From NCBI GenBank assembly GCA_947444055.1, contig CANEYR010000011.1, positions 8,534 through 72,533 on the forward strand: DNA of 64,000 nt, given 5' to 3'. Made by a program: the position numbers and the translations under genes. The notes beneath the pieces are model-generated. The model saw nothing but the letters and a program-made list of their open reading frames with translations, had not been told where the DNA came from and ran no database searches. The DNA is from Planctomycetota bacterium (lineage in GTDB: Bacteria > Planctomycetota > UBA1135 > UBA2386). Shown piece after piece: positions 3,941-39,720 of this stretch (positions are counted from its first letter, which is position 1; every line of letters starts with the position of its first letter).

Positions 3941-3944
3941 GCGC

Positions 3945-4205: not shown

Positions 4206-4225
4206 GGCGCGGCGGCCAATGCCCG

Positions 4226-7753: not shown

Positions 7754-8001
7754 CGTGCGTTTTGGGCGCGGCAGCATACGCCCCCAAAGAGCGCCCCAGG
7801 CCATGGTTTCCCCGGCCTATCGCGTTGGCGACGTCCTTGGCTAGAGCCACTTTCGCACTTGCCGAGGTCGAGCAGGCCTAAGACACGCCCGACGGCCCCG
7901 GATGCTTCGTGAGCGACCCCCCGTTCCCTCCAAAGAGGGTGGCATCGGGGTTCGACCAGCGAAAACGGACCAACGCGGCAGTTCTTGCGTCATGGCGGCC
8001 C

Positions 8002-17419: not shown

Positions 17420-18901
17420 TTATGCCTTCTGCTCGACGAGCCAGGTCTCGAGCAGTTTGGCGAGGGCGGCGGGGTCGTTGGCGATGGAGCGCTCGATCTC
17501 GCGGCGCATACGCTTTTGCTGCTCTTCGGGCGGCAGATCCTCTTCCGCGACCTCGGACTTGGCCGCGGGGGAGGTGGCGCTGGCGGCGGCGGACGACGAC
17601 GACGAACGCTTGAACAAGCCGCGCAAGAACATCACGACGACGACCACGCCGAGCACCTGACCGACGGTCGGCCCCCAGCGCAGCGCCAGTTCGCCCATGC
17701 TCGGCCCGGTACTCATCTCCTCCGCGAGCACCACTGGCGCAAAGTCACCGACCATCGTGCTGAACGCTTCGGGCTGATCGCGGGCCGGATCCCAGCCGAC
17801 GATCGCCTTCACGGTGTTCATCAGGTCGTCCTTGATGAACCCTTGGGTTTGCTCGAGCGAACGGTCGTAGAGCAGCGCCACCGTCATGCGCTTGACGTCG
17901 GGCATGCTCTTGCCAGTCCGTCGCTCGCCGATCTCAGTGACGAACTTGCGATCCTTGGTCTCGTTCTTGCTCGTGCTGCTGCTGGCATCCGCGGCCTTGC
18001 CTGGTGTGCTGGTCGCGTCCTTGCGCGACGTCTCCGAACTCACCAGCGCTTCGGTTGGCACCACCTTCTCACTGCGAATCTCCCACAGGGTGTCGAGCAC
18101 GACGCTGACCGACACCGAGGTCTTGCCGGGCCACAGTTGGTCGAGACGTTCTTGCGCCATGCGCGTGCGTTCGTCGCTCAGCGATCGCTGCAGCGTCAAG
18201 AACTCCGAGGTGCCACCGCCACCTTCACGCTCCGGATCGTGACGAAAGCGCTGATTGCCGGCCGCGCTGACCACTTCGATGTTCTGCGGCGGCAACGTCA
18301 GCTGCGACGACGCCAACGACGACGCGGCGCGCGCGATCGCTTCGAACGACACGCCGTTGCGCAGCTTGAGAATGACCGTGGCCGTCGGCTTCTGGTCGGC
18401 ATCGCGATCGCGGAAGGCGGCGCGGGCGCGCGGCCGACTGGCCGTCACCGTCACTTGCAGCACCCCTTCGAGTTGCAAGATCGCCGCCACCACACTGCCC
18501 CGCGTGGCTGCGTCGAGCTTGTAAGCCTTGGTTTCGGCGTCCTCGATCAGACTGAAGCCACCGCCAACCGCCGCGGTTTCGCCGCCGGTCAGCCCCGCTT
18601 CGATGATCGCTTGGTTCGCGAGACCGATCTTGCGGCGCTCGACGCGCAGCGTGCGGCCGTCGTCGCCAGGCTCGAAGGTCACGCCCGCGCTCTGCAATGC
18701 CGTCTTGGCGCGCCCGATTTCCTCGCCGCTCTTGGAGGTAAACACCGTCTCGTAACTGGGTTGGCCAGCAAACCACACGATGGCGCCAAGGCCAACGATG
18801 GTCGCCACGGTCACCGCCGTCACGACGAAGCGTTGCCCGGCATCGAGCCGACTCCAGATGCCCTTCGATTGGGACAGGATGTCGTTCATTACGTTGCGCA
18901 T
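17420..18901 (-). CDS. fliF: Flagellar MS-ring protein FliF
   Basis: It has an N-terminal TM helix, YscJ/FliF-type domains, a C-terminal TM helix and a FliG-binding tail. It lies between fliE and fliG. Confidence 0.9.
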   Translation of the reverse strand: MRNVMNDILSQSKGIWSRLDAGQRFVVTAVTVATIVGLGAIVWFAGQPSYETVFTSKSGEEIGRAKTALQSAGVTFEPGDDGRTLRVERRKIGLANQAIIEAGLTGGETAAVGGGFSLIEDAETKAYKLDAATRGSVVAAILQLEGVLQVTVTASRPRARAAFRDRDADQKPTATVILKLRNGVSFEAIARAASSLASSQLTLPPQNIEVVSAAGNQRFRHDPEREGGGGTSEFLTLQRSLSDERTRMAQERLDQLWPGKTSVSVSVVLDTLWEIRSEKVVPTEALVSSETSRKDATSTPGKAADASSSTSKNETKDRKFVTEIGERRTGKSMPDVKRMTVALLYDRSLEQTQGFIKDDLMNTVKAIVGWDPARDQPEAFSTMVGDFAPVVLAEEMSTGPSMGELALRWGPTVGQVLGVVVVVMFLRGLFKRSSSSSAAASATSPAAKSEVAEEDLPPEEQQKRMRREIERSIANDPAALAKLLETWLVEQKA

Positions 18902-18902
18902 G

Positions 18903-19280
18903 TCACATCACCGAGCGTGAGAGTTTCTCCCACGCATCGACCATCTTGTTGCGGACTTCGATCAGTAAGTTGAACGCCACTTCGCTCTTGCTGGAAGCGA
19001 TCATCACGTCGTGCAAGTCGACGTCTTCGCCGAGTGCCAGACCGCGAGCCTTGTCCCGCGAGTCTTCTTGCATCGCCTGCACGTTCTGGATCGAGTCGGC
19101 GAGGAAGCCAGCGAAGTCGGGGCCGTCTTTCGTCGGCAGTTCCGGCGAACGCCCCGGCACCGGCGCGATGCGCTGCGGATCCTGGGTGCCGTTCATGCCA
19201 GACGACATCGCCTGCATGACTTCCCGTTGCATGCTCATCGGATCGAAGCCGCCGAGCGCCGATAGGTCGAAGCCGGTCAT
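18903..19280 (-). CDS. fliE: Flagellar hook-basal body complex protein FliE
   Basis: It has a FliE-type C-terminus (DVDLHDVMIASSKSEVAFNLLIEVRNKMVDAWEKLSR). Confidence 0.85.
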   Translation of the reverse strand: MTGFDLSALGGFDPMSMQREVMQAMSSGMNGTQDPQRIAPVPGRSPELPTKDGPDFAGFLADSIQNVQAMQEDSRDKARGLALGEDVDLHDVMIASSKSEVAFNLLIEVRNKMVDAWEKLSRSVM

Positions 19281-19294
19281 AGTTCAGTCCTCAC

Positions 19295-19753
19295 TTAGCT
19301 CTTCATGTTGTTGATGGTGTTCTGCAACATGCCGCGGTAGGTGCGCAGTGCCGTCAGATTGGCATCGAAGCTGCGCTCGATGACCTGCATGTCGACCAGC
19401 TCTTGGAAGAGGTCGACGTTGCTGCCGAGCACCTTGCCGGTCTCGTCGGCGTCCGGGTGGCCAGGTTGGTAGAACACCGGGAACGGCGACTGGTCTTCGG
19501 CCACGTTGGCCAAGGTCACACCGCTCGCGGTGCGCACCTTGTCGCCTGCCGCACCGCGCGCCGCTTCTTCGAGCAGTTCCTCGAAGACCACGACCTTGCG
19601 GCGGTAGGGCTCGTTCTTGGCATTGCCCGTGCGATGCATGTTGCCGAGGTTGCTGGCGACGATTTCCGAACGCTGCAGCTCGGCGCGCAAGCCGGCACCG
19701 GCGATGTCGAAGCCGCGAAACACACCCTTCATCGGATCGGTCATCTGGATCAC
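19295..19753 (-). CDS. flgC: Flagellar basal-body rod protein FlgC
   Basis: It has a rod-protein N-terminal motif (AGAGLRAELQRSEIVASNLGNMHRT) and a FlgC C-terminus. Confidence 0.9.
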   Translation of the reverse strand: MIQMTDPMKGVFRGFDIAGAGLRAELQRSEIVASNLGNMHRTGNAKNEPYRRKVVVFEELLEEAARGAAGDKVRTASGVTLANVAEDQSPFPVFYQPGHPDADETGKVLGSNVDLFQELVDMQVIERSFDANLTALRTYRGMLQNTINNMKS

Positions 19754-20097
19754 CTGCCGAAGATGGCTTTGTTGATGGTGGCGAAGTAGCTGCCGACGCG
19801 GCGCGTCATGACGTCGTGCAAGAGCGAGGTCTTGCCGAGCATCGAGAGCTCATCCATGAGCACGACGTTGTTCTGGCCAGGCGGCCCCGACTGATCGCGC
19901 TCGGTGATGGGCTCGACCGACTCCACCGATTCGCCCTTCCCCTCCGCCTCGCGCAGCAGATCCTCGAAGCGCACGACGTACTTCTTGAAACCAGCCACGT
20001 TCTGGTTGGCCACGTTGTGGATCGACGCCTTGGTCCGGGCGTCGAGCACGTCGAGCATTCGCTGCTGGAACGTGATGTCGCGATCGAAGTCGATCAT
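19750..20097 (-). CDS. flgB: Flagellar basal-body rod protein FlgB
   Basis: The internal start MIDFDRDITFQQRMLDVLDARTKASIHNVANQNVAGFK matches the rod N-terminal motif. It overlaps the flgC start by 4 nt. Confidence 0.85.
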   Translation of the reverse strand: MIDFDRDITFQQRMLDVLDARTKASIHNVANQNVAGFKKYVVRFEDLLREAEGKGESVESVEPITERDQSGPPGQNNVVLMDELSMLGKTSLLHDVMTRRVGSYFATINKAIFGR

Positions 20098-20239
20098 GGT
20101 TTTGCCTGATTGCCTCTCAAGCATCGACGCATGGGCATTCCCGCCTTGAGACGGGAGGATCCGATCCGTCGGGCACGTCGTGAACCGCAGGTGTTGCACG
20201 ACGCCACAGGGAACTTCGTCTGACCGCCGCCGAGACCGT

Positions 20240-20770
20240 TTACGTCGCCGCGGGGGTTTCGAGCCAGACCCGACCACTTGCCAGGTCGCCACCAAAGCGC
20301 TCGACGATCTTGGCCAGGCGGTAGCGGAAGATCCGCAGCACGTCGGCCTCAACGAAACAACGCGAGATCAGAGGTGCAAGCGGACCGCCACGAACCGCCA
20401 TTTCGACGCGATCGCCGAGCAGAGTTCCGCCGTTCACCGCCTCGAACGTGTGCGTATGCAGCCAACGCCGATAGGGCCCTCGTTCCTGTTCATCCGCGAA
20501 GCAGAAGGGCGGCTCCCACCTCGCAATTCGGGTCCGCCACCGCAAAGGAATGCCGCGCACTCGCAACCGATAGTCGATGCGGGTATCGACCTGCATGTGT
20601 ATCGGCACCGGCGTCAAGATGTGGAATTGCATCGCCGACGGCGTCAGCAACGGCAAATTGGTTGGTTCACTGAAGAACGCCCAAGCCGCCTCAGTCGGCC
20701 GCGGCACCCACAAGGTCGACCGCAGAACCTTGGCTCCGGGCAAATGCAGTGTTCCACCGGCGATAGCCAT
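20240..20770 (-). CDS. SRPBCC ligand-binding domain protein (COG4276-like)
   Basis: It has the pattern RWEPPFCFADEQERGPYRRWLHTHTF..GGTLLGDRVEM, typical of this SRPBCC subgroup. The start is taken at MAIAGG. Confidence 0.65.
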   Translation of the reverse strand: MAIAGGTLHLPGAKVLRSTLWVPRPTEAAWAFFSEPTNLPLLTPSAMQFHILTPVPIHMQVDTRIDYRLRVRGIPLRWRTRIARWEPPFCFADEQERGPYRRWLHTHTFEAVNGGTLLGDRVEMAVRGGPLAPLISRCFVEADVLRIFRYRLAKIVERFGGDLASGRVWLETPAAT

Positions 20771-20774
20771 GGCG

Positions 20775-21620
20775 TCAGATCGAACCGCGTGCGGGCGCCC
20801 GGACGACACACCGAACCGGCAACTGCACCTCGAAGTAGCGGCGATCGCTGGCGACCGAAGGGCTGTTGTAGCCCATCGTGCGCAGTTCGCCCGCCGCCTC
20901 GTAGGCGGGATTGCGAGCCAACCATGCATCCAGACAGGTGCGCAGTTCGGCAACGCGGCTCGGCCGGTCGTAACCACGCGACCCGATCGTGACCACTGTC
21001 ATCGGCGCCACGTCGACGACCTCGACCTTGCCATCAGCCCCCGGCGCACCGAGGTTCGACGACCCGTATAGGAAGGCCATCGAGGCCTCGCGTGTGCGCT
21101 CGCCATCGGTCTGGTAGTCGATCTGCACCGGCGTCGTCATCGCAATCTGCTTGGCTTGGATGTGTTGAAACAACGGCCAGAAAGCACCTATCGCACCGCC
21201 GCGCATAGGCGTGCGCACCATGCGGTACGCGGGGTAGTGGCGCAGTTCGAGCTCGCCAAGGGCCGTGAACCCAGGCACGCCTGCGGGCAGTTCCGCTTCG
21301 ACGACTGGCTGAAACGTCATATCTTCGAATAGGTCGAGCACAGACGGCAGCAGAGCCGCCGCGTCCTCTTGCAAAGACAGCTCGGCCAGTCGCGCCTTCG
21401 CGGCAAGACCAGCGGGCAGGCACTCTTTGGCGGTGGCTAGGGAAGCTTGCAGCCGCGGCAAGCCTTCGACTGCCCCGAATTCACGAATGGCATCGAGACC
21501 GAAGGCCACCACTGCGGTCGCTGTCTGCCGCGCTAGCAGATCCGACGGCGACAGCAGGCGCTCTTGCGCATCAAGACCGAGTGCCGGGAACCATGACAAC
21601 GCCATCGCGGTGAATCGCAT
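20775..21620 (-). CDS. SOUL/HBP heme-binding-like family protein with N-terminal extension
   Basis: The C-terminal ~190 aa follow the SOUL pattern (ELRHYPAYRMVRT...AFWPLFQHIQ...IAMTTPV...MAFLYG...TMGYNSP). Confidence 0.7.
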   Translation of the reverse strand: MRFTAMALSWFPALGLDAQERLLSPSDLLARQTATAVVAFGLDAIREFGAVEGLPRLQASLATAKECLPAGLAAKARLAELSLQEDAAALLPSVLDLFEDMTFQPVVEAELPAGVPGFTALGELELRHYPAYRMVRTPMRGGAIGAFWPLFQHIQAKQIAMTTPVQIDYQTDGERTREASMAFLYGSSNLGAPGADGKVEVVDVAPMTVVTIGSRGYDRPSRVAELRTCLDAWLARNPAYEAAGELRTMGYNSPSVASDRRYFEVQLPVRCVVRAPARGSI

Positions 21621-21679
21621 GGCGGGGTGTTCGCTACAACCCCGCCGATGGATGCAGCCAGATTCTCAGGAAGCGCGCG

Positions 21680-22474
21680 TCAGAGCTTGGCGATTGCCAC
21701 CACGTTTTCCTGTGCCGATACGACAGCACCCTCGACGGCTTCGACCGTAAGCACGAAGGCAGTGACCTGACGCACCGGCAGCCGCGCGTCGACGCGGATC
21801 ACTGCATCCCCGGCGCCGGCAGGCAAAGCAAACAGACCACCATCCACCGGCGGGCCAGTGCGCGCAGCATCCACGATCCAGAGCTGGTAGCGATGGTTCG
21901 CATCAAGAGGAACAAAGCCTCGCAACCGCAAATAGCCTTCCTGGCGCCGCGCGTTCCAAACGATGTCGCCGCCCAATCCGCCCCGCAAGGGACTCGGGCC
22001 TGGCTGCAGCGAGCACTGCTGGGTGTCAGACGCCGCTAGCAGCAGGGCAGCCCGTGACTGCGCCGACATCGGTGAACCCCTGTCGACTGGCCAAAGCCAC
22101 AACAACAGGCTCGCAGCGACCAGCAGCCACGGCAGCAAACGCCAGCCTCGATCACCATTCGGTGGCTCGACCAAGAACGGTGGCGACGGTGTTCTGGACA
22201 CAACGGGCGACGGGTTGCCAGCGAACCATGCCAGGGCATCCGCCTGCAACTTCGCGGTGATGGCAACGAGCTGCGACGCCGCGACCGAAACTTCGTCCTC
22301 GCTATGCAGTGCCAACGGAACGGCCGCAGCGGCGTCCGCGAATCCAGCAAGTGCGTCGCCCGCACGCTCATCCAGCATCACCCGAGCGAACTCCGCTTCG
22401 TCAGCAGGCTCCAACCAAGCCATGGTCGCATCCGCGAGCAACGCCTCGCGTTGAGAAAGGTCGAGATCACTCAT
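21680..22474 (-). CDS. Anti-sigma factor (RskA-like C-terminal domain)
   Basis: It overlaps the sigma-factor stop by 4 nt and has a central TM helix. The C-terminus is YQLWIVDAARTGPPVDGGLF...AFVLTVEAVEGA. Confidence 0.75.
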   Translation of the reverse strand: MSDLDLSQREALLADATMAWLEPADEAEFARVMLDERAGDALAGFADAAAAVPLALHSEDEVSVAASQLVAITAKLQADALAWFAGNPSPVVSRTPSPPFLVEPPNGDRGWRLLPWLLVAASLLLWLWPVDRGSPMSAQSRAALLLAASDTQQCSLQPGPSPLRGGLGGDIVWNARRQEGYLRLRGFVPLDANHRYQLWIVDAARTGPPVDGGLFALPAGAGDAVIRVDARLPVRQVTAFVLTVEAVEGAVVSAQENVVAIAKL

Positions 22475-23025
22475 GACCTTGTTCCCCCTTCAACGGCCAC
22501 GACGCCAAGCATCGCGCGCAACCGGACCAAGCCGCGCCGCGCGTGGCTCTTCACGGTGCCGAGAGGAATGCCGACAGCCACTGCGATCTCTTGGTGCGAA
22601 CGCCCATGTCCGAGTGCCAGCTCAAGCACTTCTCGCTGTTCGGGCCGCAACTGCTGCATCGCGGCTCGAGCGCGAGCTGACTCGTCGCGAAGCTCCACAT
22701 CGTCGCTCGGTGCGTTCGCAGGCACGAAAGCTGGATGCTCAAGTTGGTCGGCAGCGGGGCGGATCGTTTGCCGACGCAGACGATCAACCAATCGACGGCG
22801 CGCAATGGTGAGCAAGAACGTCACTTCCTTGCCTTGGGCCGGATCGAAGCGATGTGCACTGCGCCAGACCTCGAGAAAGATGTCCTGCACGGCATCCTCG
22901 ACATCCTGGGCGTTGCGCAAGAACCGACGGGCTTGGTTCCACACCAGTGACGTGTAGCAACGCAGGAACTCGCCAACGGCGGCCATGTCACCACTCGCGA
23001 TCTGCGTCAACAAGGCTTGCGACAT
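22471..23025 (-). CDS. ECF-type RNA polymerase sigma factor
   Basis: It has sigma-70 regions 2 and 4 (DVEDAVQDIFLEVW; HQEIAVAVGIPLGTVKSHARRGL). The start is taken at MSQALLTQIASGD. The ORF is open to 23100. Confidence 0.85.
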   Translation of the reverse strand: MSQALLTQIASGDMAAVGEFLRCYTSLVWNQARRFLRNAQDVEDAVQDIFLEVWRSAHRFDPAQGKEVTFLLTIARRRLVDRLRRQTIRPAADQLEHPAFVPANAPSDDVELRDESARARAAMQQLRPEQREVLELALGHGRSHQEIAVAVGIPLGTVKSHARRGLVRLRAMLGVVAVEGGTRS

Positions 23026-23111
23026 GCAGGAGAAACCGTCGTGGCTGCTTCTACGGGCCGCGGCCGCCGCAAGCTTGTGAATTTTCCTCGTCGTCGGCAA
23101 CCGCCTCCGAA

Positions 23112-24023
23112 CTACCGAGGCAGGATCACGGCGTCGATGACGTGGATGACGCCATTGCCGGCGACCACATCCGTCGCGACCACGTTGGCGTTGTCGATCA
23201 TAACCTTGCCGTCGGTGACCTTGATCAGCACCGCACCACCCTGCAACGTCTTCGCCTCCTTGAGCTTGACGACGTCCGCAGCCTTCACGGTCCCGGCCAC
23301 GATGTGGTACTTGAGCACGTCGGCGAGCTTCTGCTTGTTCTCGGGCTTCAGCAGGTCGGCGAGGGTGTCGTTGCCGAGCTTGGCGAAGGCTTCGTCCGTC
23401 GGCGCAAACACCGTGAACGGTCCGCCGTTGGCGAGCGTGTCGGCGAGCCCAGCTGCCGTCGCCGCGGTCAGCAACGTCTTGAACTTGCCAGCCTTCGCAG
23501 CGGTAGCAACCAGATTGTCCGGTGGCAACAGCACGGAGTCGACCACGTGGATGACCCCATTGGTCGCCACGATGTCCGTCTTCACGACCTTGGCGCTGCC
23601 GACCATCACACCGCTCTTGTCGACGACGACGGCTAGGCTATTGCCTTGCACGGTTGCGAGTTCCTTCTGCAGCACGACCTTCTCGGCGGGCACGTTGCCG
23701 GCAACCACGTGGTAGGTGAGGATCGCCGCCAACTTCTTCTTGTTCTCGGGCTTCAGCAGCTCGGCGAGCGTGTCCTTGCCCAGCTTGGCAAACGCCTCGT
23801 CGGTCGGTGCGAATACCGTGAACGGCCCCTTGCCTTGCAAGGTGGCGACGAGATCAGCGGCCTTGACCGCTGCTACCAACGTGGTGAACTGGCCAGCCGC
23901 AACCGCGGTGGCAACGATGTCCTTGTCGGTTTTGCCGTGGGTAGCTTCGGCGGAGTCTTGCGCCGACAAACCGACCAACAAGAGGGTCGAAGAGAGAATC
24001 GAGAGGGAAAGGGGCGTGTGCAT
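23112..24023 (-). CDS. Secreted protein with two fasciclin (FAS1) domains
   Basis: It has a signal peptide ([21 protein letters not shown]) and two repeats each containing [17 protein letters not shown] and [10 protein letters not shown] / [10 protein letters not shown]. Confidence 0.9.
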
Positions 24024-24117
24024 GGTGTTTGTGCGCGCGCCACGAAGTGCTCGGATGCGCGCGATGACGTCTTCGCAGCAACCCACCACTTGGATGCAGG
24101 TGCTTTCCTGATATCCC

Positions 24118-24144
24118 GCAGAACCCGGCCCGCTGTATGAACGT
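24118..24144 (+). promoter_or_regulatory. Candidate ECF-type promoter (AGAAC-N17-CGT) just upstream of the B12-binding gene
   Basis: GAAC lies at 24121-24124 and CGT at 24142-24144, separated by 17 nt. The -10-like element ends 5 nt before the ATG at 24150, which would imply a near-leaderless transcript. Confidence 0.2.
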
Positions 24145-24149
24145 GCACC

Positions 24150-25211
24150 ATGGAGTCCCAAGGACGCTTCGCCGCCGGCTTGCTGCGGCATGGCGCGCGC
24201 GCTTACGCGACCATGGTGGTCGAGGCATTGGCCGACCAGAGTGCCGGCTTGTCGGCGCATGGCTTGCCGAGTTCGTTTGCGGATCCGATCGAAGACACCC
24301 GAGTGCGATTGCTGACACTTGCGGAAGCACTCGATGTCGATCGCCCAGAACTGATCGCGCGCCAGATCGCCTGGTACAAAGTTGCGTTCGCGCACCGCAA
24401 CGTGGCAGGTGACTACCTTGAGGCCAATCTGCACGCCATTCGCGACGCCCTGCTCCAACAGTTGCCGGCGCCATGCCACGAGATCGTGATGCGACACCTG
24501 GATGCCGGCGTACAGATGGCTCGAAATGCCCCCAGCGACCTTCCGAGCCACCTTGAGAGCGGCGGGGCCATGCTCACAGAAGCGCGCCAATTCCTGCTCG
24601 CGGTGCTGGAGAACCGCGCGCACGATGCACTTGACCTGGTAATGGCATGGCACGCCGCTGGCGCCAGCATTGCCGAGCTGCATGACCATGTGCTGACGCG
24701 AGCACAACGCGAAGTCGGTCGCATGTGGCTGATGGCCGAGATCCCGATCGCCGACGAACACTTCGCATCGCGCCTCGTCGAGCGTTGTCTGGACCGCTTG
24801 GCCGGTCTGGCGCCGCCCGCGATCCACCTTGGTCGATTCGTAGTGACGTGCGCCGTGGGCGGCAACCTGCATGACATCGGCCTGCGCATGGTCGCCGATC
24901 GCTTCGAAATGCACGGCTGGGATGCCTGGCACCTCGGCGCAGACATGCCGGCTCACGACTTTGAATGGCTGCTGCAGGATCGCCGCGTCGACCTGATCGC
25001 ACTTGGCGCCACCTTGGTGCTCCATGTCAGTACGGCCCGATCCACCATCGAACGACTGCGCGCAACGCTCGGCACGCGGTGCCCACCAATCCTGGTCGGT
25101 GGTCACCCGTTCACCCTCGTCGAGGACCTCTACCGCGTGATCGGCGCCGACGCCGTCGCCCACTCAGCAGCCGAAGCGGTGGCCTACGGCGAGTCGCTGA
25201 CCCGGGGCTGA
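24150..25211 (+). CDS. Cobalamin-binding protein: unknown helical N-domain + B12-binding_2 four-helix bundle + Rossmann B12-binding domain (CarH-like sensor module, no DNA-binding domain)
   Basis: It has the exact Wx9EH motif ([12 protein letters not shown]), the lower-ligand motif NLHDIG, and downstream LIALGATL and ILVGG. Confidence 0.8.
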
Positions 25212-25261: not shown

Positions 25262-26254
25262 GTGACGGCACCCCACTCACCCGGTCCGATGAACGCGCCG
25301 CCCTCCGCAGAGGGCAGCGAGGCTGCGCCAACCGCCGAAGTGGCTCATCTACTGGCCGGGTTGGCCTCTGCATGCCCTTCGATCGCGCCCAAGTACTTCT
25401 ACGACGAGCTTGGCTCGCGCCTGTTCACCGCGATCACAGCGCTGCCTGAGTACTACCCCACCCGGACAGAAGCCGAACTACTCGCGCAACACCTGCCCGC
25501 GATCACTGCGGCCGCACCAACCGTCGGCGCCACCCTGATCGACCTCGGAGCCGGCAACTGCGAGAAGGCGGCCCGCTTGTTTGCGGCCGTGCGCCCGACC
25601 ACCTACGTCGCGGTCGACATCTCTGCCGAGTTCTTGCGCGGCTGCTTGGCGCGGTTGCAGCGCCTGCATACCGGCATCACCATGCTCGGCGTCGGCACCG
25701 ACTTCTCGGCGCGCTTGGACCTGCCGCCGTCGGTGCCCAGCCATCGCCGACTCTTTTTCTATCCAGGTTCGTCGATCGGCAACTTCACGCCGCGCGACGC
25801 CCACACCTTCTTGCGCAGCGTGCGCGCCCAGATGCTGACGGACGGAGTGCTGTGGATCGGGGTCGATTTGCAGAAGGCGCGCGACGTGCTTGAACTCGCC
25901 TACGACGACCCGCTCGGCGTCACCGCGGCCTTCAACAAGAACGTGTTGCAGCACGTCAATCGCATCGTCGGCACCGACTTCGATCTCGCCGATTGGCGCC
26001 ATGTCGCCTTCTACGAGCCGCAGCTCGGCCGCATCGAGATGCACCTCGAAGCCGTCACGGACGTGCGCGTCACCTGGCCCGGTGGTGGCCGCCTGTTCCG
26101 CGCTGGCCAACGCATCCACACCGAGAACTCCTACAAGCACACCGTGCCCAGCTTTCGCGCGCTGCTCGCCGAGGCGGGGCTGCACACCGTCGGGCATTGG
26201 ACCGACGCCGCTGGCTGGTTCGCGTTCTTCGTCGCGACCCCGACGTCGCCGTGA
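25262..26254 (+). CDS. egtD: L-histidine N-alpha-methyltransferase (ergothioneine biosynthesis EgtD)
   Basis: It has PKYFYDELGSRLFTAITALPEYYPTRTEAELL and the SAM-binding segment LIDLGAGNCEKA, typical of EgtD (TIGR03438-type). Confidence 0.88.
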   Translation: MTAPHSPGPMNAPPSAEGSEAAPTAEVAHLLAGLASACPSIAPKYFYDELGSRLFTAITALPEYYPTRTEAELLAQHLPAITAAAPTVGATLIDLGAGNCEKAARLFAAVRPTTYVAVDISAEFLRGCLARLQRLHTGITMLGVGTDFSARLDLPPSVPSHRRLFFYPGSSIGNFTPRDAHTFLRSVRAQMLTDGVLWIGVDLQKARDVLELAYDDPLGVTAAFNKNVLQHVNRIVGTDFDLADWRHVAFYEPQLGRIEMHLEAVTDVRVTWPGGGRLFRAGQRIHTENSYKHTVPSFRALLAEAGLHTVGHWTDAAGWFAFFVATPTSP

Positions 26255-27438
26255 GCGACCCGCGACGACTGCACGGCCAAGCGCTGCTCAACGCCTTCGG
26301 TGAAGCGCGCGCCGCCACGCTCGCCGCCACCTTGGACCTCAGCGACGAGCAATGGCGCGTGCCCTACCACCGCGGCATCCAGCCCACCGCCTGGGATCTG
26401 GCGCACATCGCGTGGTTTGCGGAGTTCTGGTTGTTGCGCGGACCCCATCGCATCGACGTCGCCGGCAATGTGCTGGCCGATGGCGTGCTCGCCGACAGTG
26501 AGCGCGCGATCATCGGCCTCGATGAACGCTACGACTCGGCGCGCATCGCGCATCGCGCTCGCTGGGAGATGCCGCTGTTCGAACGCGGCGAGCTGTTGGA
26601 GCGCATGGCGCAACAACTGCAGGCCTGCACCGACCACATCGCGCGCCGCGACGATGCAAGCACGCTCTACCACGCGCGCTTTGCCGTGCTGCACGAACTG
26701 ATGCACATGGAAGCGCTGCTGTGGACGCGCGGCATTCTCGGCTATCCGGCACCAGCCGACCTGACGATGCGTCGCTTCACCGCCAGTCCCGAGGTGTTCG
26801 TCGCCGGCGGTGCGTTTGCCATCGGCCAGGGCCACGACGAGGACCGCTTCGCGTTCGACAACGAACTGCCGGGGCGCATGGTGCAACTGGAGGCCTTCTG
26901 CATCGACGCCACGCCCATCACCAACGGGCAGTTCCTCGCGTTGGTGCAGGCCGATGGCTACCGACGCACCGAACTGTGGCCCGGACGCGCTGGCACGTGG
27001 CTCGCGCGCGAACAACGCACGCAGCCCGAACGCTGGCGGCGGCTGGCGAACGATCGCTACGAGCATCGTTGGTTCCATCAGTGGGCGCCGCTGCCGCTCG
27101 ACGAACCGGTCGTGCACATCAATGCCTTTGAAGCCGAGGCCTACTGTCGCTTCGTCGGTCGCCGCCTGCCGCGCGCTGCCGAATGGGAAGTCGCCGCCGA
27201 TCGCATGGCGTGGGGTCACTCTGTTTGGGAATGGACCGCCGATGCGTTCGCGCCGTTCCCTGGTTTTCGCCCAGGGCCCTACACGACCTACTCGGCCCCG
27301 TGGTTTCACGCGCAGCGCGAGATGCGCGGCGGCGCCTTCGCCACGCACGCGCTGATGCACGACCGGCGCTACCGCAACTTCTTCCTGGCGCAGCGCACCG
27401 ACATCTTTGCCGGCTTCCGCACCGCCGCGGACGCGTAG
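26251..27438 (+). CDS. egtB: Sulfoxide synthase EgtB (DinB-like + FGE-sulfatase domains)
   Basis: The GTG start overlaps the egtD stop (GTGA). It has a DinB-like N-terminus (WDLAHIAWFAEFWLL) and an FGE-type C-terminus (SVWEWTADAFAPFPGF...RGGAFATH). ~395 aa. Confidence 0.85.
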   Translation: MSDPRRLHGQALLNAFGEARAATLAATLDLSDEQWRVPYHRGIQPTAWDLAHIAWFAEFWLLRGPHRIDVAGNVLADGVLADSERAIIGLDERYDSARIAHRARWEMPLFERGELLERMAQQLQACTDHIARRDDASTLYHARFAVLHELMHMEALLWTRGILGYPAPADLTMRRFTASPEVFVAGGAFAIGQGHDEDRFAFDNELPGRMVQLEAFCIDATPITNGQFLALVQADGYRRTELWPGRAGTWLAREQRTQPERWRRLANDRYEHRWFHQWAPLPLDEPVVHINAFEAEAYCRFVGRRLPRAAEWEVAADRMAWGHSVWEWTADAFAPFPGFRPGPYTTYSAPWFHAQREMRGGAFATHALMHDRRYRNFFLAQRTDIFAGFRTAADA

Positions 27439-27524: not shown

Positions 27525-27666
27525 TCCCCAGATCCGAGCAGTGCGCTGCTGGTGGCACAGCCAACACGGATCTCGCCACAGCCTGAGCGCCCGCCAGCCC
27601 ATGCCACCGTGCTCTCCTGGCACGCGACACGCCCGTTCCAGCGGGGCCGAACGCGCAGTCGATGGA

Positions 27667-28347
27667 ATGCTGATTGACACCTCGCCAGTCGATGCCGAAC
27701 CTCCTTGCCCGCCGAATGCCGTTGGCCCGATGAACTCGCCCCGCAACCTCAAGCGCCACGAAGGCGTCATCACCCGCCATGACCGGGAGCGCTTGCTCGG
27801 CCAGCGCGGCGCCGTGGTGTGGTTCACCGGCTTGTCCGGTTCGGGCAAATCGACCGTCGCCTGCGGCGTCGAAGAACGCCTCGTCGCGCAGGGCCGCCTC
27901 GTCTACGTCTTGGACGGCGACAACATCCGCCATGGCCTGTGCGCCGACCTTGGCTTTGCCGCGGCCGATCGCACCGAGAACATCCGCCGCATCAGCCATA
28001 CCGCCGCCCTGTTCGCCGACGCGGGCGTCATCGTGCTGACCGCGTTCATCTCGCCGTTCCGCGCCGATCGCGCGGCGGCTCGCGCCGTGCTCGGCAACGA
28101 CTTCCTCGAAGTGTTCGTCGATGCGCCGCTGGCGACGTGCGAACAACGCGACCCCAAAGGCCTCTACAAGAAGGCGCGCGCCGGCCAGATCCCGGAGTTC
28201 ACCGGCATCAGCTCGCCGTACGAAGCGCCCGAACATCCCGAACTGCACCTGCGCACCGGCGAGCGAACGCTGGCGCAATCGGTCGACGCCGTGCAGTCGT
28301 TCTTGGCCGCCCGCGGCCTGTTGGCAGCCTCTTCCGCCACGTCATGA
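27667..28347 (+). CDS. cysC: Adenylyl-sulfate (APS) kinase
   Basis: It has the canonical motifs [27 protein letters not shown] and [12 protein letters not shown]. The start is uncertain (27667 or about 27730). Confidence 0.9.
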
Positions 28348-29252
28348 CCAAGTACGCCCTCACCCATCTGGAGCAACTCGAGCACGAGAGCATCCAGATC
28401 ATCCGCGAAGTCGCCGCCGAGTTCGAACGGCCGGTGATGCTGTATTCGATCGGCAAGGACAGCGGCGTCATGCTGCGGCTGGCGCAGAAGGCGTTCGCGC
28501 CCGCGCGCATCCCGTTCAAGATCCTGCACATCAACACGACGTGGAAGTTCAAGGAGATGATCACGTTCCGCGACCAGATGGTGGCGGACCTGAAGCTCGA
28601 CTTCGACGAGTGGATCAATCTCGAAGGCAAGAAGGACGGCATCAATCCGTTCGTGCATGGCACGCAGCGCTACACGCACGTGATGAAGACCGAGGGTTTG
28701 AAGCAGGCCCTCAATGCGGGCCAATACGACGCCGCGTTTGGCGGGGCTCGGCGCGACGAAGAGAAAAGCCGCGCGAAGGAACGCGTGTTCAGCTTCCGCG
28801 ATCGCTTCCACCAGTGGGACCCGAAGAACCAACGGCCCGAGCTGTGGAACCTGTTCAACTGCCGCGTGCACAAGGGCGAGTCGATCCGCGTGTTCCCGAT
28901 CAGCAACTGGACCGAGCTCGACGTCTGGCTCTACATCCACAAAGAACAGCTGCCGGTGGTGCCGCTCTACTTCGCGAAGGCCCGGCCGGTCGTCCGGCGC
29001 GGCAACGCCTGGATCATGGTCGACGATGAACGCCTGCCGCTGCAGCCCGACGAGCAGCCGGAGATGCGCATGGTCCGCTTCCGCACGCTCGGCTGTTACC
29101 CGCTGACCGGCGCCATCGATTCGACTGCCGACACGCTGCCGAAGATCATCGAAGAGATGCTGCGCAGCCGCGACTCCGAACGACAGGGGCGCGTCATCGA
29201 CTTTGACGAAGCTGGTTCCATGGAGCAGAAGAAGCGCGAGGGCTATTTCTAA
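28344..29252 (+). CDS. cysD: Sulfate adenylyltransferase subunit 2
   Basis: It has the PAPS-reductase-fold motif [16 protein letters not shown] and a CysD-type C-terminus. The ATGA overlaps the cysC stop. Confidence 0.93.
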
Positions 29253-31198
29253 TGTCCTCCTACGCCCGCCAGATCGACGAGCTCGGCATCGACGGCTACC
29301 TCGCGCGCTACGGCCATCGCGAGATGCTGCGTTTCCTCACCTGCGGCAGCGTCGACGACGGCAAGTCGACGTTGATCGGACGGCTGCTCTTCGACTCGCA
29401 CATGATCTTCGACGACGTGCTGGCGGCGACCCGCAAGGCGTCCGAACGCTTCGGCACGACCGGTCAGGAGGTCGACTTGGCGCTGCTGGTCGACGGCCTG
29501 CAGGCCGAACGCGAACAGGGCATCACCATCGATGTCGCCTACCGCTACTTCGCCACCGAACGCCGCAAGTTCATCATCGCCGACACGCCTGGGCACGTGC
29601 AGTACACGCGCAACATGGCGACCGGCGCCTCCAACTGCGACCTCGCGGTGATCCTGATCGATGCGCGCTACGGCGTGCTCGAGCAAACGCGGCGGCACTC
29701 GTTCATCTGTTCGCTGCTCGGCATCCAGCACTTCGTGATCGCCGTCAACAAGATGGATCTGGTCGAGTTCCGCGAAGAGCGCTTCGAAGAGATCCGCACC
29801 GCCTACGCCGACTTCGCGGCGCGACTGTCCGTGCGCGACATCACGTTCATCCCGATGTCCGCACTGAAGGGCGAGAACGTCGTGCACCGCAGCACGCAGA
29901 TGCCGTGGTACCAAGGTTCGCCGCTGCTCGCCCACCTCGAGACCGTGCACTTGGCGAGCGACCGCAACCTCGTCGACCTGCGCTTCCCCGTGCAGCATGT
30001 GCTGCGCCCGGACCTCAACTTCCGCGGCTACTCGGGCACGATCGCGTCGGGCACGATCCGAGTTGGCGACACCATCGCCGCCCTGCCGTCGGGCAAGCAG
30101 AGCCAGATCAAGTCGATCGTCACCTTCGATGGCGACCTGCAAGAAGCGTTTGCGCCGATGGCGGTGACGCTGACGCTGACGACGGAGATCGACATCAGCC
30201 GCGGCGACATGCTGGTCGCCCCCAACAACGCGCCACCCCTCAGCAACGCGATCGAAGCCATGGTCGTGTGGTTTCATGAAGAACCGTTGCAGCCGGGCCG
30301 CCAGTTCTTGGTCAAGCACACGACGGTGCAGACGGCGGCGACCGTGACCGACCTGCGCTACCGCATCAACGTCGGCACGCTGCACCGCGAAGCCACGGGC
30401 TCCTTGCAGATGAACGAGGTCGGGCGCATTCGCCTCGAGTGCGCGCGGCCCTTGGCGGCGGATGCCTACAGCAAGAACCGCGCGACCGGCTCGTTCATCC
30501 TGATCGACCGCCTCAGCAACGCCACGGTTGGCGCCGGCATGGTCGTCGAACGCAAACTCGCCGACGATGCGACGAAGCGCGCCGCCGGCAGCGCGGACGC
30601 CGGCAGCAACGTGCGCCTGCAGCACAATCGCCGCATCAAGCCAGAAGCGCGCAAGCAGCGGTTGGGGCAAGAGCCGTTCGTGCTGTGGATCACCGGCCTG
30701 CCGCGCAGCGGCAAGTCGTCGCTGGCCTACGCGCTCGAGCAGTGGCTGTTTGACAACCAACGCCATGTGCACGTGCTCGACGGCGAGATCCTGCGGCTTG
30801 GCCTCAATCGCGACCTCGGGTTCAGCGGCGCCGATCGTTGGGAGAACCAACGGCGCGCCGCCGAAGTCGCCAAACTCAATCTCGCCTGCGGCATCAGCAC
30901 GATCGTGGCGCTGGTCTCGCCACTGCAATTCGAACGCGAACAGGCCCGCGACATCGTTGGCGCCGAGCACTTCCTGGAAGTGTTCTGCGATGCGCCGCTC
31001 GCCGCCTGCGAAGCGCGCGACCAGGACGGTCTCTACGCCCGCGCCCGCGCTGGCGAGATCGACAACGTCACCGGCGTCGACGCGCCGTATGAACCGCCGA
31101 CGAAACCGACCCTGGCGCTGGACACCGTGCGCGACTCGGTCGATGCGAACGTGCAGAAAGTCATCGCCCTTCTCCGCAGTCGCAGCCTTGTTCGCTGA
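29252..31198 (+). CDS. cysNC: Bifunctional sulfate adenylyltransferase subunit 1 / APS-kinase-like domain (CysN-CysC fusion)
   Basis: It has GTPase motifs [14 protein letters not shown] and NKMD. The C-terminal ~175 aa are APS-kinase-like but divergent ([17 protein letters not shown]). Confidence 0.92.
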
Positions 31199-31203
31199 TC
31201 ACC

Positions 31204-32415
31204 ATGGAACCAGTCATCGAAGCCAAGGGGCTCAGCAAGACGTACCGGATCTACGGTAACCCCTACCACCAACTGCTGGAGCTGATGCCGTGGAACAAGC
31301 GCCAACGGCACCACGCGGTGCATGCGCTGCATGACGTGTCCTTCGACGTCAAGCCAGGGGAGTGCATGGGGCTCGTCGGCTCCAACGGCGCTGGCAAGTC
31401 GACGCTGCTGAAGGTGCTCAGCGGCACCACCTACCCGACCGCGGGCAGCTACGCGGTGCGTGGCCGCGTCACCAGCCTGCTGGAGCTGGGGGCGGGGTTC
31501 CACATGGGCTTCACCGGCCGCGAGAACATCTTCATGAACGCGGCGATGATGGGCTTCTCGCGTAAAGAGGCGCAGAAGAAGTACCAGGAGATCGTCGACT
31601 TCAGCGAGCTCGGCGAATTCATCAACGCCCCCGTGCGCACCTACTCGTCCGGCATGGGCGCGCGCCTCGGCTTCTCGGTCGCGGTCGCCACCGAACCGGA
31701 TTTGTTGATCATCGATGAGATCCTGGCCGTCGGTGACATGAACTTCCGCCGCAAGTGCGTCGACAAAATCTTCGACTACAAGAAGCGCGGCAAGTCGATG
31801 TTCTTCTGCTCGCACTCGCTCTACGACGTGCGCCAGATCTGCGAACGCGCGATCTGGATGCGTTCGGGCCGCGTGCAGTTGCTCGCCGATGCGGTGACCG
31901 TCACCAACGAGTACGCAACCTACGAGAACAAGATCGCCGACGGCGCGGGCGACCCGGTGCCGTTTCGTGATGCTCCTGTCGTGCCCGACCGAGGCGTCGA
32001 TCACCCACACATCGTCGAAGGCTTGGTGATCGATCCGGCGACCGGCCAAGCGCGCAACCGCTTCTCGCCCGGTGACAACGCCGCGGTGCGCGTTCACATC
32101 AAGAATCCCAAGCGCGAGCGTCTGGTCGTCGCGGTCGGCGCCATGCGCACCGACGGCAGCCTGTGCTTTGGCCACACGACGCAGTTCGCCAACCTGCCTT
32201 TCGACTTCGCAGAGGGCCACGTGACCCTCTATCTCGACAACCTGCGGCTGTTGTCCGGCGAGTTCACGGTGCCGATCTGGCTGTTCGACGAGCACGGCGT
32301 GCATCGTTTCCAAGAACGGCCGGCGGCGCAGAATCTGATCGTCGCCAATCGCACGAAGGACATCGGCCTCTACCTGCAAGAGCACCGCTGGACGCTGGAA
32401 CCGATCAAGAAGTGA
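31204..32415 (+). CDS. Polysaccharide/O-antigen ABC exporter ATP-binding protein with C-terminal glycan-terminus-binding (Wzt_C-like) domain
   Basis: It has Walker A GSNGAGKST, the signature YSSGM, Walker B LLIIDE, and a ~150-aa beta-rich C-terminal extension. Confidence 0.88.
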   Translation: MEPVIEAKGLSKTYRIYGNPYHQLLELMPWNKRQRHHAVHALHDVSFDVKPGECMGLVGSNGAGKSTLLKVLSGTTYPTAGSYAVRGRVTSLLELGAGFHMGFTGRENIFMNAAMMGFSRKEAQKKYQEIVDFSELGEFINAPVRTYSSGMGARLGFSVAVATEPDLLIIDEILAVGDMNFRRKCVDKIFDYKKRGKSMFFCSHSLYDVRQICERAIWMRSGRVQLLADAVTVTNEYATYENKIADGAGDPVPFRDAPVVPDRGVDHPHIVEGLVIDPATGQARNRFSPGDNAAVRVHIKNPKRERLVVAVGAMRTDGSLCFGHTTQFANLPFDFAEGHVTLYLDNLRLLSGEFTVPIWLFDEHGVHRFQERPAAQNLIVANRTKDIGLYLQEHRWTLEPIKK

Positions 32416-36167: not shown

Positions 36168-37007
36168 ATGACGCTGTTACGCGAGCGGATGGCAGAGGAC
36201 CTGCGCATTCGCAACTACTCCCCGAAGACGGTGGAGTGCTACGTGTCGATGATGGCGCGGTTCACGCGCGAGTTCGGGAAGCCGCCGGGCCAGCTCGGGC
36301 CGGCCGAGATCCGCACCTTCCAGGTGCGCCTGATCGAGAAGAAGGTGTCGTGGACGCAGTTCAACCAGACGGTCTGCGCGCTGCGGTTCTTCTACCGGGT
36401 GACGCTACCGCGCGACTTCGTGGTAGAGCACATCCCGTTCGCGAAGGTGAAGAGGAAGCTGCCGACGGTGCTGAGCGTCGACGAGGTGCGGCGGCTGCTG
36501 AGCGCGCCGACGAACATCAAGCATCGTGCGGTGCTGAGCCTGATCTACGCGACGGGCGTGCGACTGAACGAGGCCACGCACTTGCGAGTCAGCGACATCG
36601 ACAGCGCTCGCATGACGGTGCACATCCGCAACGGCAAGGGCGGCAAGCCGCGCATGGTGCCAATGTCCACGGCGCTGCGTGATTTGCTGCGCGCTTACTG
36701 GCTCGTGGATCACCCCCGTGACTATCTGTTTCCGGGGGTGCATCCAGATCGGCCGCTGCATGAGAGCAGTGTTCAGCATGCTTGCACCAAGGCGCGGTTG
36801 ATCGCTCGCATCGACAAGCCCGCGAGTATGCACACACTGCGCCACAGCTACGCGACGCATCTGCTTGAGCTCGGTGTCGACTTGCGCACGATCCAGAAGC
36901 TTCTGGGTCACGCGAGCTTGTCGACGACGGCGGTCTACATGCACGTGACCGGCCGGCTGCTGGACGCGGCGAACAAGGCAGTCGATCTGTTGGCGATCCC
37001 GACCTGA
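36168..37007 (+). CDS. Tyrosine recombinase (phage-integrase family, IS91-associated type)
   Basis: It has an N-terminal SAM-like core-binding domain (MAEDLRIRNYSPKTVECY) and catalytic residues in ATGVRLNEATHLRV, HTLRHSYATHLLE and GHASLSTTAVYMH. Confidence 0.9.
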   Translation: MTLLRERMAEDLRIRNYSPKTVECYVSMMARFTREFGKPPGQLGPAEIRTFQVRLIEKKVSWTQFNQTVCALRFFYRVTLPRDFVVEHIPFAKVKRKLPTVLSVDEVRRLLSAPTNIKHRAVLSLIYATGVRLNEATHLRVSDIDSARMTVHIRNGKGGKPRMVPMSTALRDLLRAYWLVDHPRDYLFPGVHPDRPLHESSVQHACTKARLIARIDKPASMHTLRHSYATHLLELGVDLRTIQKLLGHASLSTTAVYMHVTGRLLDAANKAVDLLAIPT

Positions 37008-37015
37008 CACCTGTC

Positions 37016-39422: not shown

Positions 39423-39689
39423 ATGACAAGGAGACTCACCATCTCCCTGAAGCGCGAGCTTGGCATGTCGGCGACACGCGTCAGCATCGGAGCGCAGTGT
39501 CTCGTGCACGTCCTGGTTGCTGACTCGGCACCCCACAACTCTTCGAGCACACACCGCAGGTGGTCGATCACTACGGGAAGAGCCGCCCCACCACGAATCC
39601 ACATCTCGGCTGGTGAATTCAGTGAGGCGTCGATCGCCTCGAATGCTCTTCGGAGTCCGCTCGCGTCCACAGTTGCATCCAAGACCTGA
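39423..39689 (+). CDS. Possible cassette-3 ORF (88 aa), doubtful
   Basis: It begins 28 nt after site C and stops 6 nt before a truncated attC-like left half. The protein sequence is not convincing, and an antisense frame looks equally plausible. Confidence 0.2.
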   Translation: MTRRLTISLKRELGMSATRVSIGAQCLVHVLVADSAPHNSSSTHRRWSITTGRAAPPRIHISAGEFSEASIASNALRSPLASTVASKT

Positions 39690-39695
39690 CCAGCT

Positions 39696-39720
39696 TGCGA
39701 ACAAGCCCGCGGGCCAGATT
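39696..39720 (+). other. Truncated attC-like left half
   Basis: TGCGAACAAGCCCGCGGGC resembles the GCCCAACAAGCC starts of sites B and C. No matching right box occurs before the glycosyltransferase stop at 39747. Confidence 0.25.

Follow-up and report, generated by a model that had tools for sequence, protein, structure and literature searches.

Photocobilins, which join a light-sensing cobalamin module to a bilin-binding globin, were described only in the years 2021–2024, and characterised as well as predicted members act on kinases or diguanylate cyclases (PMC10979010). The stand-alone SasPcob, for example, modulated the diguanylate-cyclase domain of another organism in vitro, and the role of stand-alone photocobilins in physiology is still unclear (PMC10979010). 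For the extracytoplasmic function (ECF) sigma factors of the SigK-RskA type, the natural stimulus has been described as obscure (PMC9861118). Here, we analysed a 64,000-nucleotide (nt) stretch of a Planctomycetota genome (assembly GCA_947444055.1, contig CANEYR010000011.1; hereafter the window), in which a gene for a photoglobin-B12 (photocobilin-type) photoreceptor of 353 amino acids (aa) was recognised from its open reading frame, Pfam, PDB sequence matches and an AlphaFold2 model (24150–25211, + strand). It lies divergent from an operon for a SigK/RpoE-like ECF sigma factor and an RskA-type anti-sigma factor. We give an even chance to the reading that this stand-alone photocobilin is the cytoplasmic light sensor of the adjacent sigma/RskA pair, with a photo-oxidative-stress regulon as its output.

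The C-terminal part of the protein is a B12 module of the CarH type, and both Pfam and an alignment of 68 homologues (29–69% identity) bore out the Wx9EH motif, the NLHDIG motif and the Rossmann fold that the original prediction had read from the sequence. Pfam assigned B12-binding_2 (E 5.8e-8) and B12-binding (E 4.3e-16), both above the curated cut-offs. The former, also seen in the alignment and by Foldseek, is a four-helix cap (residues 146–217; 24585–24800, +) with G190-x-x-W193 and E203-H204; the latter, likewise supported by the alignment, is a Rossmann domain (residues 232–344; 24843–25181, +) with the lower axial ligand H241 in G238-N-L-H241-D-I-G244. The light-sensing signature thus reads G190-R-M-W193, E203-H204 and G238-N-L-H241, Wx9EH being W193-x9-E203-H204, and the fourth SignatureFinder element, GxxxP, could not be located in the protein. 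E203, H204, H241, E188, G190 and R191 are invariant in the alignment and W193 is kept in 67 of the 68 sequences, so that the presence of the motif cannot be put down to chance. Top PDB sequence matches were the photocobilins SasPcob (8J2W, 8J2X) and AbPcob (8J2Y), together with the B12 domain of CtMerR (8JBS). In Foldseek, the B12 module of the full-length model was superimposed onto SasPcob with a root-mean-square deviation (rmsd) of 1.8 Å over 210 columns, at a sequence identity of only ~28% over the aligned module, and the B12 domains of CtMerR and CarH were found as well. The AlphaFold2 model itself is very confident over its full length (predicted local distance difference test, pLDDT, 95.8; predicted template modelling score, pTM, 0.92), which suggests a globin packed in a fixed way against the B12 module.

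The remaining ~140 N-terminal residues had been described as a helical domain of unrecognised type. All-helical they are (residues 1–140; 24150–24569, +), and profile, PF00502 and Foldseek matches now identify the predicted domain as a photoglobin, i.e., a phycobiliprotein-like, bilin-binding globin. Searched with phmmer, the single N-domain sequence had no match in the PDB, and a profile built from 29 homologous N-domains was needed; this matched the biliverdin globin of SasPcob (E 9e-10), AbPcob (6e-7) and many allophycocyanin and phycocyanin chains, with 3e-7 for allophycocyanin beta as the best value. Ten of the 29 homologous N-domains matched the Pfam family Phycobilisome (PF00502) singly, and a second, weak alignment to SasPcob joins residues 56–110 of the 353-aa protein to its C-terminal globin. 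A separate AlphaFold2 model of residues 1–140 (pLDDT 90) retrieved smURFP, the ApcE bilin domain and allophycocyanins as best PDB hits and also SasPcob, with template modelling (TM) scores of 0.66–0.79 and rmsd values of 2.1–3.0 Å; for SasPcob, the query-normalised TM was 0.68–0.69. The full-length model had caught the B12 module only, since the domain order is permuted relative to SasPcob.

Conserved residues point to a bilin pocket like that of SasPcob, whose Asp270 and Trp296 contact biliverdin (PMC10979010): D49 (42 of 43 clade members) and W75 (68 of 68 homologues) align with these two residues at an equal spacing of 26 residues. At position 46, where typical photoglobins have the Cys of their CXQD motif, 39 of the 43 clade members carry Pro, while among 25 distant homologues 17 have Cys or Ser. 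As SasPcob also lacks the attachment Cys and binds biliverdin non-covalently (PMC10979010), this Cys is not needed for family membership, and a bilin would have to be bound non-covalently here, too. The N-domain probably holds a non-covalent bilin such as biliverdin, and the B12 module probably adenosylcobalamin (AdoCbl). Cobalamin use is plausible for the organism, as the window encodes a full-length B12-dependent MetH (4226–7804, −) with the domains S-methyl_trans, Pterin_bind, B12-binding_2, B12-binding and Met_synt_B12. An Rfam search of the window matched no family, and thus no cobalamin riboswitch either.

By its sequence, the 353-aa protein is a member of the published photoglobin-B12/photocobilin family (PMC8717448, PMC10979010, PMC11796333). 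It has the same three blocks as SasPcob and AbDPcob (8J2W/8J2X/8J2Y), namely the Wx9EH cap, the Rossmann B12 domain and the bilin globin, and differs from them by its N-terminal globin and by Asn239 in place of Glu/Asp. The globin-first order has already been listed as a known subgroup (PMC8717448, PMC10979010). With the photoglobins at large (PMC8717448; see also PMC10151467) it shares the globin fold, the helix-3 Asp, a helix-4 hydrophobic residue (F/L80) and the fusion to B12-binding_2 and B12-binding, the replaced CXQD Cys being the difference from typical members. Planctomycete members were part of the photoglobin data set, and the genomic contexts reported so far comprise SpoIIE/STAS as well as two- and one-component systems, ECF sigma factors not being among them (PMC8717448). 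The architecture is abundant: our profile search gave 3,464 cluster representatives at E ≤ 1e-30, the best 150 of which were nearly all aligned across the whole profile, and larger homologues carry the photoglobin-B12 module fused to HisKA-HATPase_c with or without REC. The module is consequently a general sensor input, which this clade has attached to an ECF operon.

Several homologues are labelled “methanogenic corrinoid protein MtbC1” by JGI, and weak NCBIfam similarity to MtgC, MtbC and MtaC agrees with such source annotations, which would make the protein the corrinoid methyl carrier of a methyltransferase system. Such an identity, which the original prediction had listed, as a methyltransferase corrinoid-protein context of the N-domain, among the results that would speak against it, is hardly credible and was rejected: the best score was 56 bits against a cut-off of 370, cognate methyltransferase genes occurred in no neighbourhood examined, the Wx9EH motif is present and the N-domain is a photoglobin. 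The EgtD encoded downstream is S-adenosylmethionine-dependent and confined to the lineage of the window.

Further known B12-based regulators provide points of comparison. The light-sensing B12 module with W-x9-E-H and the lower His is common to CarH/LitR and the window protein, which has an extra bilin-type domain and, as originally proposed, no MerR-type DNA-binding domain. Pfam gave no MerR or helix-turn-helix match, the N-terminus being the globin instead, and the NCBIfam CarH model scored 42.5 bits against a cut-off of 400; control through operator binding is thus impossible. Streptomyces LitR, for comparison, controls the ECF sigma gene litS. A B12-binding protein without DNA-binding domain that works by protein-protein contact is AerR/PpaA. 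AerR is directed at the repressor CrtJ instead of a sigma/anti-sigma pair and is not known to contain a photoglobin. No AerR/PpaA entry was among the PDB or NCBIfam matches of the 353-aa protein, and a direct comparison was not made; the analogy drawn in the original prediction is dispensable. In Myxococcus, light is coupled to the ECF sigma/membrane anti-sigma pair CarQ/CarR, whose branch is triggered by singlet oxygen via CarF, whereas CarH acts separately on DNA (PMC8156234).

For some proteins of the AerR/PpaA/SCHIC type, sensing of cobalamin supply, redox state or heme has been proposed, and the photoreceptor could likewise inform the ECF pair of such a signal in place of light. Position 239, which precedes the lower-ligand His by two residues and is canonically Asp or Glu, is Asn in the window protein and in most clade members (28 of 43, the others having D in 14 cases and E in one; distant homologues have D in 13 cases and E in 12). 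In addition, a SOUL heme-binding-family protein is encoded in the operon, and in two gammaproteobacterial loci discussed below the EH motif reads ER. We nevertheless consider a signal other than light quite improbable: the light-sensing elements GxxW, EH and GxxH (PMC11796333) are invariant across the clade, the genes next to its relatives are light-related (photolyase, furan-fatty-acid genes), and the lower-ligand His is likewise invariant, whereas SCHIC domains bind heme and not B12.

Across a gap measured at 126 bp (24024–24149), the photoreceptor gene faces the divergent order fasciclin/sigma/RskA/SOUL/SRPBCC, as it had been laid out in the original prediction. The first operon gene encodes a secreted protein with two FAS1 (fasciclin) domains (23112–24023, −; start MHTPLSL; Pfam Fasciclin E 3e-79 in two stretches). 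The sigma gene follows (22471–23100, −; Pfam Sigma70_r2 and r4_2), with a likely true start at M26 (23025), its homologues having 170–184 aa. Its closest PDB entries are SigK of Mycobacterium tuberculosis (4NQW, 3e-22) and then RpoE of Rhodobacter sphaeroides (2Q1Z, 4e-21). Both positions aligned with the redox cysteines C133 and C183 of SigK are Met in the window protein; of the ECF18 members, 94% keep this pair, and of the ECF19 members 56% (PMC7509140). The ATG of the anti-sigma gene (21680–22474, −) overlaps the sigma stop codon (ATGA), and its product comprises an N-terminal part of ~108 aa (presumably cytoplasmic), one hydrophobic stretch, presumed to span the membrane, and a C-terminal RskA_C domain (E 9.6e-9), which is its sole Pfam match; the zinc anti-sigma domain and cupin of ChrR-type anti-sigma factors are not found in it. 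An ECF sigma factor with regions 2 and 4 followed by an RskA_C anti-sigma factor represents the layout of a SigK-RskA-type module.

A close described counterpart is SigK-RskA of Mycobacterium (ECF18/19) with its fasciclin targets MPT70/MPT83, which likewise features a SigK-like sigma factor, an adjacent, overlapping and translationally coupled RskA_C anti-sigma gene and fasciclin proteins, and the window operon is apparently autoregulated as well. It departs from SigK-RskA by the Met residues in place of the redox Cys pair, by the fasciclin gene standing first in the sigma operon and by the attached photoreceptor gene. RpoE-ChrR of R. sphaeroides, with RpoE as the second-best solved relative, overlaps in the regulon (fasciclin and CMAS/amine-oxidase/DUF1365 genes; PMC7074977, PMC7380195, PMC3546557) but differs by its type of anti-sigma factor and by its signal, which is singlet oxygen and not a dedicated photoreceptor.

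Evidence for a functional connection comes from the conservation of this arrangement. Related loci were collected via exact-protein look-ups (7) and via a one-genome-per-species scan with an alignment of 13 sequences (37 more, all metagenome-assembled genomes (MAGs), nearly all labelled Planctomycetota, with 41–65% identity to the window protein), and their neighbour content was determined by tblastn with the neighbouring proteins of the window. An ECF sigma gene adjoins the photoreceptor gene in all 35 of the 37 scan loci with enough upstream DNA, in 34 of these with the fasciclin gene between them and in divergent orientation, and of the 32 loci that are long enough to show it, 30 gave a match to RskA. 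Missing linkage in relatives had been named as a result that would speak against a connection; the outcome was the opposite. The outer flanks, by comparison, vary from locus to locus (flagellar genes; a Na/Pi transporter; sulfatase and alcohol dehydrogenase; riboflavin kinase). The SOUL gene (20775–21620, −; Pfam SOUL E 1.6e-14) and the weakly matched SRPBCC/Polyketide_cyc2-like gene (~20240–20770, −; E 1e-4, below the cut-off, with identical Pfam matches in the orthologues of L001 and L003) are indeed present in the window, but the unit does not always include them: both are confined to the closest relatives (≥56% identity), where they stand behind an ECF-type promoter of their own. The window sequence was found in freshwater and sediment metagenomes and, together with its relatives, in lake, river and ocean metagenomes; a search of sequencing runs of all kinds returned DNA runs only, RNA runs not having been asked for separately.

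An alternative option could be that the photocobilin signals to a kinase or cyclic di-GMP enzyme encoded elsewhere and that its adjacency to the sigma operon merely reflects a common light-response neighbourhood. This would be in line with the kinases and diguanylate cyclases on which known and predicted photocobilins act and with the effect of SasPcob on a foreign diguanylate-cyclase domain (PMC10979010). Among our own loci, distant homologues (≤38% identity) are found unfused in ABM-photocobilin-histidine kinase operons (L008 and L050) or as isolated genes with no obvious partner (L048 and L049). In the loci of this clade, however, neither kinase nor GGDEF genes are conserved in the vicinity of the photoreceptor gene, while the sigma operon is always there, and other lineages have reassembled the pairing in four or more different gene orders, as described in the following, which renders a partner elsewhere improbable.

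Seen from the sigma side, the association is tight among close relatives. We searched 80 loci with sigma relatives of 44–73% identity for a photoreceptor within a 4.5-kb flank; of the 20 loci closest to the window in their sigma gene (≥54% identity), 19 have one there. The exception, L078 (58% identity; 3538–5022), has neither a photocobilin nor RskA in the locus, which may reflect a co-loss of sensor and anti-sigma factor; its fasciclin-sigma pair is flanked by a gene that by eye looks like a TPR-repeat gene and by a gene read as fpg. Altogether, 56 of the 80 sigma loci lack a photocobilin in this 4.5-kb range, and nearly all of the 56 are of lower identity; most of them are sigma-RskA modules of Steroidobacteraceae and Phycisphaerales, some with fasciclin and some without.

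Judging from gene order and sequence matches, the pairing is rebuilt in at least four other gene orders at six loci from other lineages. In L074, genes for a photocobilin-like protein, a photolyase-like protein, sigma and RskA follow each other on one strand, and in L100 the sigma gene is followed after a 5-nt gap by a photocobilin-like gene, shortly before the contig ends. L123 and L125 feature a sigma-RskA pair convergent with a 25%-identical photoglobin-B12 gene and CMAS. In the gammaproteobacterial MAGs L101 and L102, a sigma gene and a short anti-sigma gene of 81–87 aa (L101, 5057–5320, +; L102, 5036–5281, +) are convergent with a photocobilin-like gene, whose product shows the ER variant mentioned above; fasciclin is nearby in both, and L101 also contains SOUL, photolyase and folE genes. 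A search for further relatives of this photocobilin-like gene gave just two more loci, both uninformative. The short proteins leave no room for the membrane segment and RskA_C of a full-length RskA. Their homology to RskA rests on matches to the N-terminal portions of the RskA-type anti-sigma genes found behind sigma at 20 other loci; BLASTP of the window RskA N-domain against the truncated L101 RskA gave no alignment. An anti-sigma factor devoid of membrane and periplasmic parts could only receive a cytoplasmic signal, which favours a cytoplasmic sensor, and the adjacent photoreceptor would be the obvious candidate for this sensor in L101 and L102.

What the sigma factor would control can be read from a promoter motif, TGCATCC-N16(17)-CGAA, which is common to the intergenic regions and points to the fasciclin/sigma/anti-sigma operon in every related locus. 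Among the distant homologues, it is absent from L008, L049 and L050, and L048 has only a variant inside its photocobilin gene. A motif scan of the window gave three matches, compared with 0.26 expected. The first, TGCATCC-N16-CGAA (24072–24098, −), is directed toward fasciclin/sigma/anti-sigma, and the second, with the same spacing (21630–21656, −), stands directly upstream of SOUL, as is the case in all SOUL-carrying loci. In the window as in the relatives, the latter ends ~10 nt before the SOUL start codon (21618–21656, −); the SOUL mRNA would thus have little or no leader, unless translation really begins at a start codon further downstream. The third match, TGCATCC-N17-CGAA (39674–39701, +), has no plus-strand gene downstream, a long minus-strand gene beginning at 39747; it was dismissed as a target promoter and is probably due to chance or possibly belongs to an unannotated small transcript.

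About 1 kb past the photoreceptor gene, 19 of the 37 loci contain CMAS and DUF1295 genes divergent from genes for a fatty-acid desaturase, an amine oxidase, DUF1365 and CMAS. This furan-fatty-acid-type cluster (carried by L005, L016, L018, L022–L027, L030, L031, L034, L036, L037, L039–L041 and L043–L045, and not found within the 64-kb window) has the motif in its intergenic region in 15 of the 19 loci, in 14 of them back-to-back in both directions. Its CMAS, amine-oxidase and DUF1365 genes resemble ufaM, ufaD and ufaO; in R. sphaeroides, CMAS-type UfaM, amine-oxidase-like UfaD and the DUF1365 protein UfaO make furan fatty acids, which are related to singlet oxygen and accumulate on deletion of the anti-sigma factor ChrR (PMC7380195). 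Fasciclin genes fit this picture as well: RSP_1409 is induced under photo-oxidative stress (PMC7074977), and mpk70/mpk83 of Mycobacterium kansasii, which have putative SigK sites, are light-induced (PMC9861118). By analogy, the output would be a photo-oxidative-stress regulon. As far as sequence motifs tell, there are four targets: the sigma operon, SOUL-SRPBCC, the furan-fatty-acid-type cluster and, in about one third of the loci, the photoreceptor gene itself. The last of these carries the motif at a fixed distance of 42–45 nt from its start in 10 of the 37 loci and further upstream in three more, while ~15 loci have a sigma-70-like TTGAGC-N18-TAnAAC in front of the gene instead; in the window, neither type of promoter could be assigned to it.

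These promoters bear on the foremost of the alternatives, in which the photoreceptor is a co-regulated regulon member or modulator and not the trigger. Singlet oxygen, lipid damage or proteolysis would then activate the ECF pair through the membrane-embedded or periplasmic portion of RskA, as for RpoE-ChrR or SigK-RskA, and the photocobilin would act downstream, e.g., as a feedback element or a tetrapyrrole-binding photoprotective protein. The transmembrane segment and RskA_C of the RskA proteins in this clade, the ECF-type promoters in front of the photoreceptor gene and the many sigma-RskA/fasciclin modules devoid of a photocobilin are all compatible with such a role, and in R. sphaeroides regulon members are themselves needed for the activation of sigma-E by singlet oxygen (PMC3546557). 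Yet the ~15 loci with a sigma-70-like promoter argue that the photoreceptor gene is not generally ECF-dependent, the L101/L102 anti-sigma factors are paired with a photocobilin-like gene while lacking membrane and periplasmic parts, and homologous modules are sensor inputs, fused or adjacent to kinases. We therefore regard a mere regulon-member role as possible but rather unlikely.

Returning to the photocobilin as light sensor of the sigma/RskA pair, several points weigh against it. The sigma module can evidently work without a photocobilin, as seen in the 56 loci; RskA of this clade keeps its periplasmic RskA_C, so that an envelope or singlet-oxygen signal could be the main or a second input; and in about one third of the loci an ECF-type promoter makes the photoreceptor gene a target, although a target gene can also be an input through feedback. 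For the window itself, no promoter of the photoreceptor gene was identified. At the protein level, Asn239 replaces the canonical Asp/Glu in 28 of the 43 clade members and the photoglobin Cys of CXQD is replaced by Pro, and neither a heme oxygenase nor an ABM gene turned up in the neighbourhood of the photoreceptor gene, the rest of the window being only partly annotated.

Starting from the domain identity, the conservation of the ligand residues and of synteny, and the promoter motif, we infer cofactor binding, light sensitivity, signal direction and the physical partner in the following sequence of events. The photoreceptor would bind AdoCbl and probably a bilin; light would split the Co–C bond, upon which His204 may become the upper ligand, and the conformation or oligomeric state would shift, as in SasPcob, AbDPcob and CarH. 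The altered photoreceptor would then contact the cytoplasmic N-domain of RskA, or the sigma/RskA complex, in a different manner and the sigma factor would be freed. In the SigK-RskA system, the cytoplasmic N-domain of RskA both inhibits and activates SigK, and truncated RskA proteins occur naturally (PMC7509140). Free sigma would transcribe from the TGCATCC-N16-CGAA promoters its own operon (fasciclin, sigma, RskA) and SOUL-SRPBCC, and in relatives also the furan-fatty-acid-type lipid-modification cluster and sometimes the photoreceptor gene. That the stand-alone photocobilin is specifically a light-gated partner of the RskA-type anti-sigma factor, as an anti-anti-sigma or co-anti-sigma factor, we put at somewhat below an even chance.

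Apart from these elements, the surroundings of the locus gave some additional hints. A 683-aa open frame (23112–25163, −) comprises the fasciclin gene and continues antisense through most of the photoreceptor gene; it was rejected as a gene, being a shadow frame typical of DNA with 65% G+C, and fasciclin starts at 24023. Downstream of the photoreceptor gene, and with no terminator-like site in between, are egtD (TIGR03438, 349 bits) and a gene for an EgtB/SenA-like sulfoxide/selenoxide synthase (25262–27438, +), for which the SenA model NF041186 scored 411 bits, just below its cut-off of 420. Outside the window's own lineage (L046), this pair is missing from all of the ~40 related loci, and grouping the photoreceptor gene with it was therefore rejected. 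Ergothioneine-type betaines quench singlet oxygen, so that an insertion of egtD/senA-like genes fits the photo-oxidative theme. The locus is flanked by the flagellar genes fliF, fliE, flgC and flgB (17420–20352, −) and by cysC, cysD, cysNC and a gene for a Wzt-like ABC ATPase (27541–32415, +); both blocks are syntenic with L003, which has no egtD/senA. A mobile element further downstream (36168–38176, +) consists of a tyrosine recombinase (Phage_integrase) followed by an IS91-family transposase (Y2_Tnp, Zn_Tnp_IS91).

Protein family and globin-first architecture were already known, and it is the genomic wiring that appears to be new. A photocobilin together with a SigK/RpoE-like ECF operon and a furan-fatty-acid/fasciclin regulon was found neither in the photoglobin, photocobilin, SignatureFinder and ECF re-classification papers nor by full-text searches, and an ECF sigma/anti-sigma operon as partner is a context unmentioned in the photocobilin literature (PMC10979010, PMC8717448). 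A locus with ~40 syntenic relatives and several independent rebuilds points to one specific output, namely an ECF sigma/anti-sigma pair that has a recognisable promoter and a photo-oxidative-stress regulon. If the proposed connection is true, stand-alone photocobilins would have a first natural output pathway, and SigK/RpoE-like ECF sigma factors of Planctomycetota and, independently, of some Gammaproteobacteria would gain a direct green-to-red photoreceptor input, i.e., a new class of ECF input in the form of a soluble two-chromophore photoreceptor. For SigK-RskA-fasciclin modules, whose stimulus logic has long been obscure, this would offer a concrete candidate, with a bearing on the mycobacterial SigK-RskA pair; the fasciclin antigens under the control of that pair are induced by light in M. 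kansasii (PMC9861118). If confirmed, the compact set of sensor, sigma factor, anti-sigma factor and promoter could possibly serve as a green-to-red light switch, and non-phototrophic aquatic bacteria could anticipate light damage directly, ahead of the formation of singlet oxygen.

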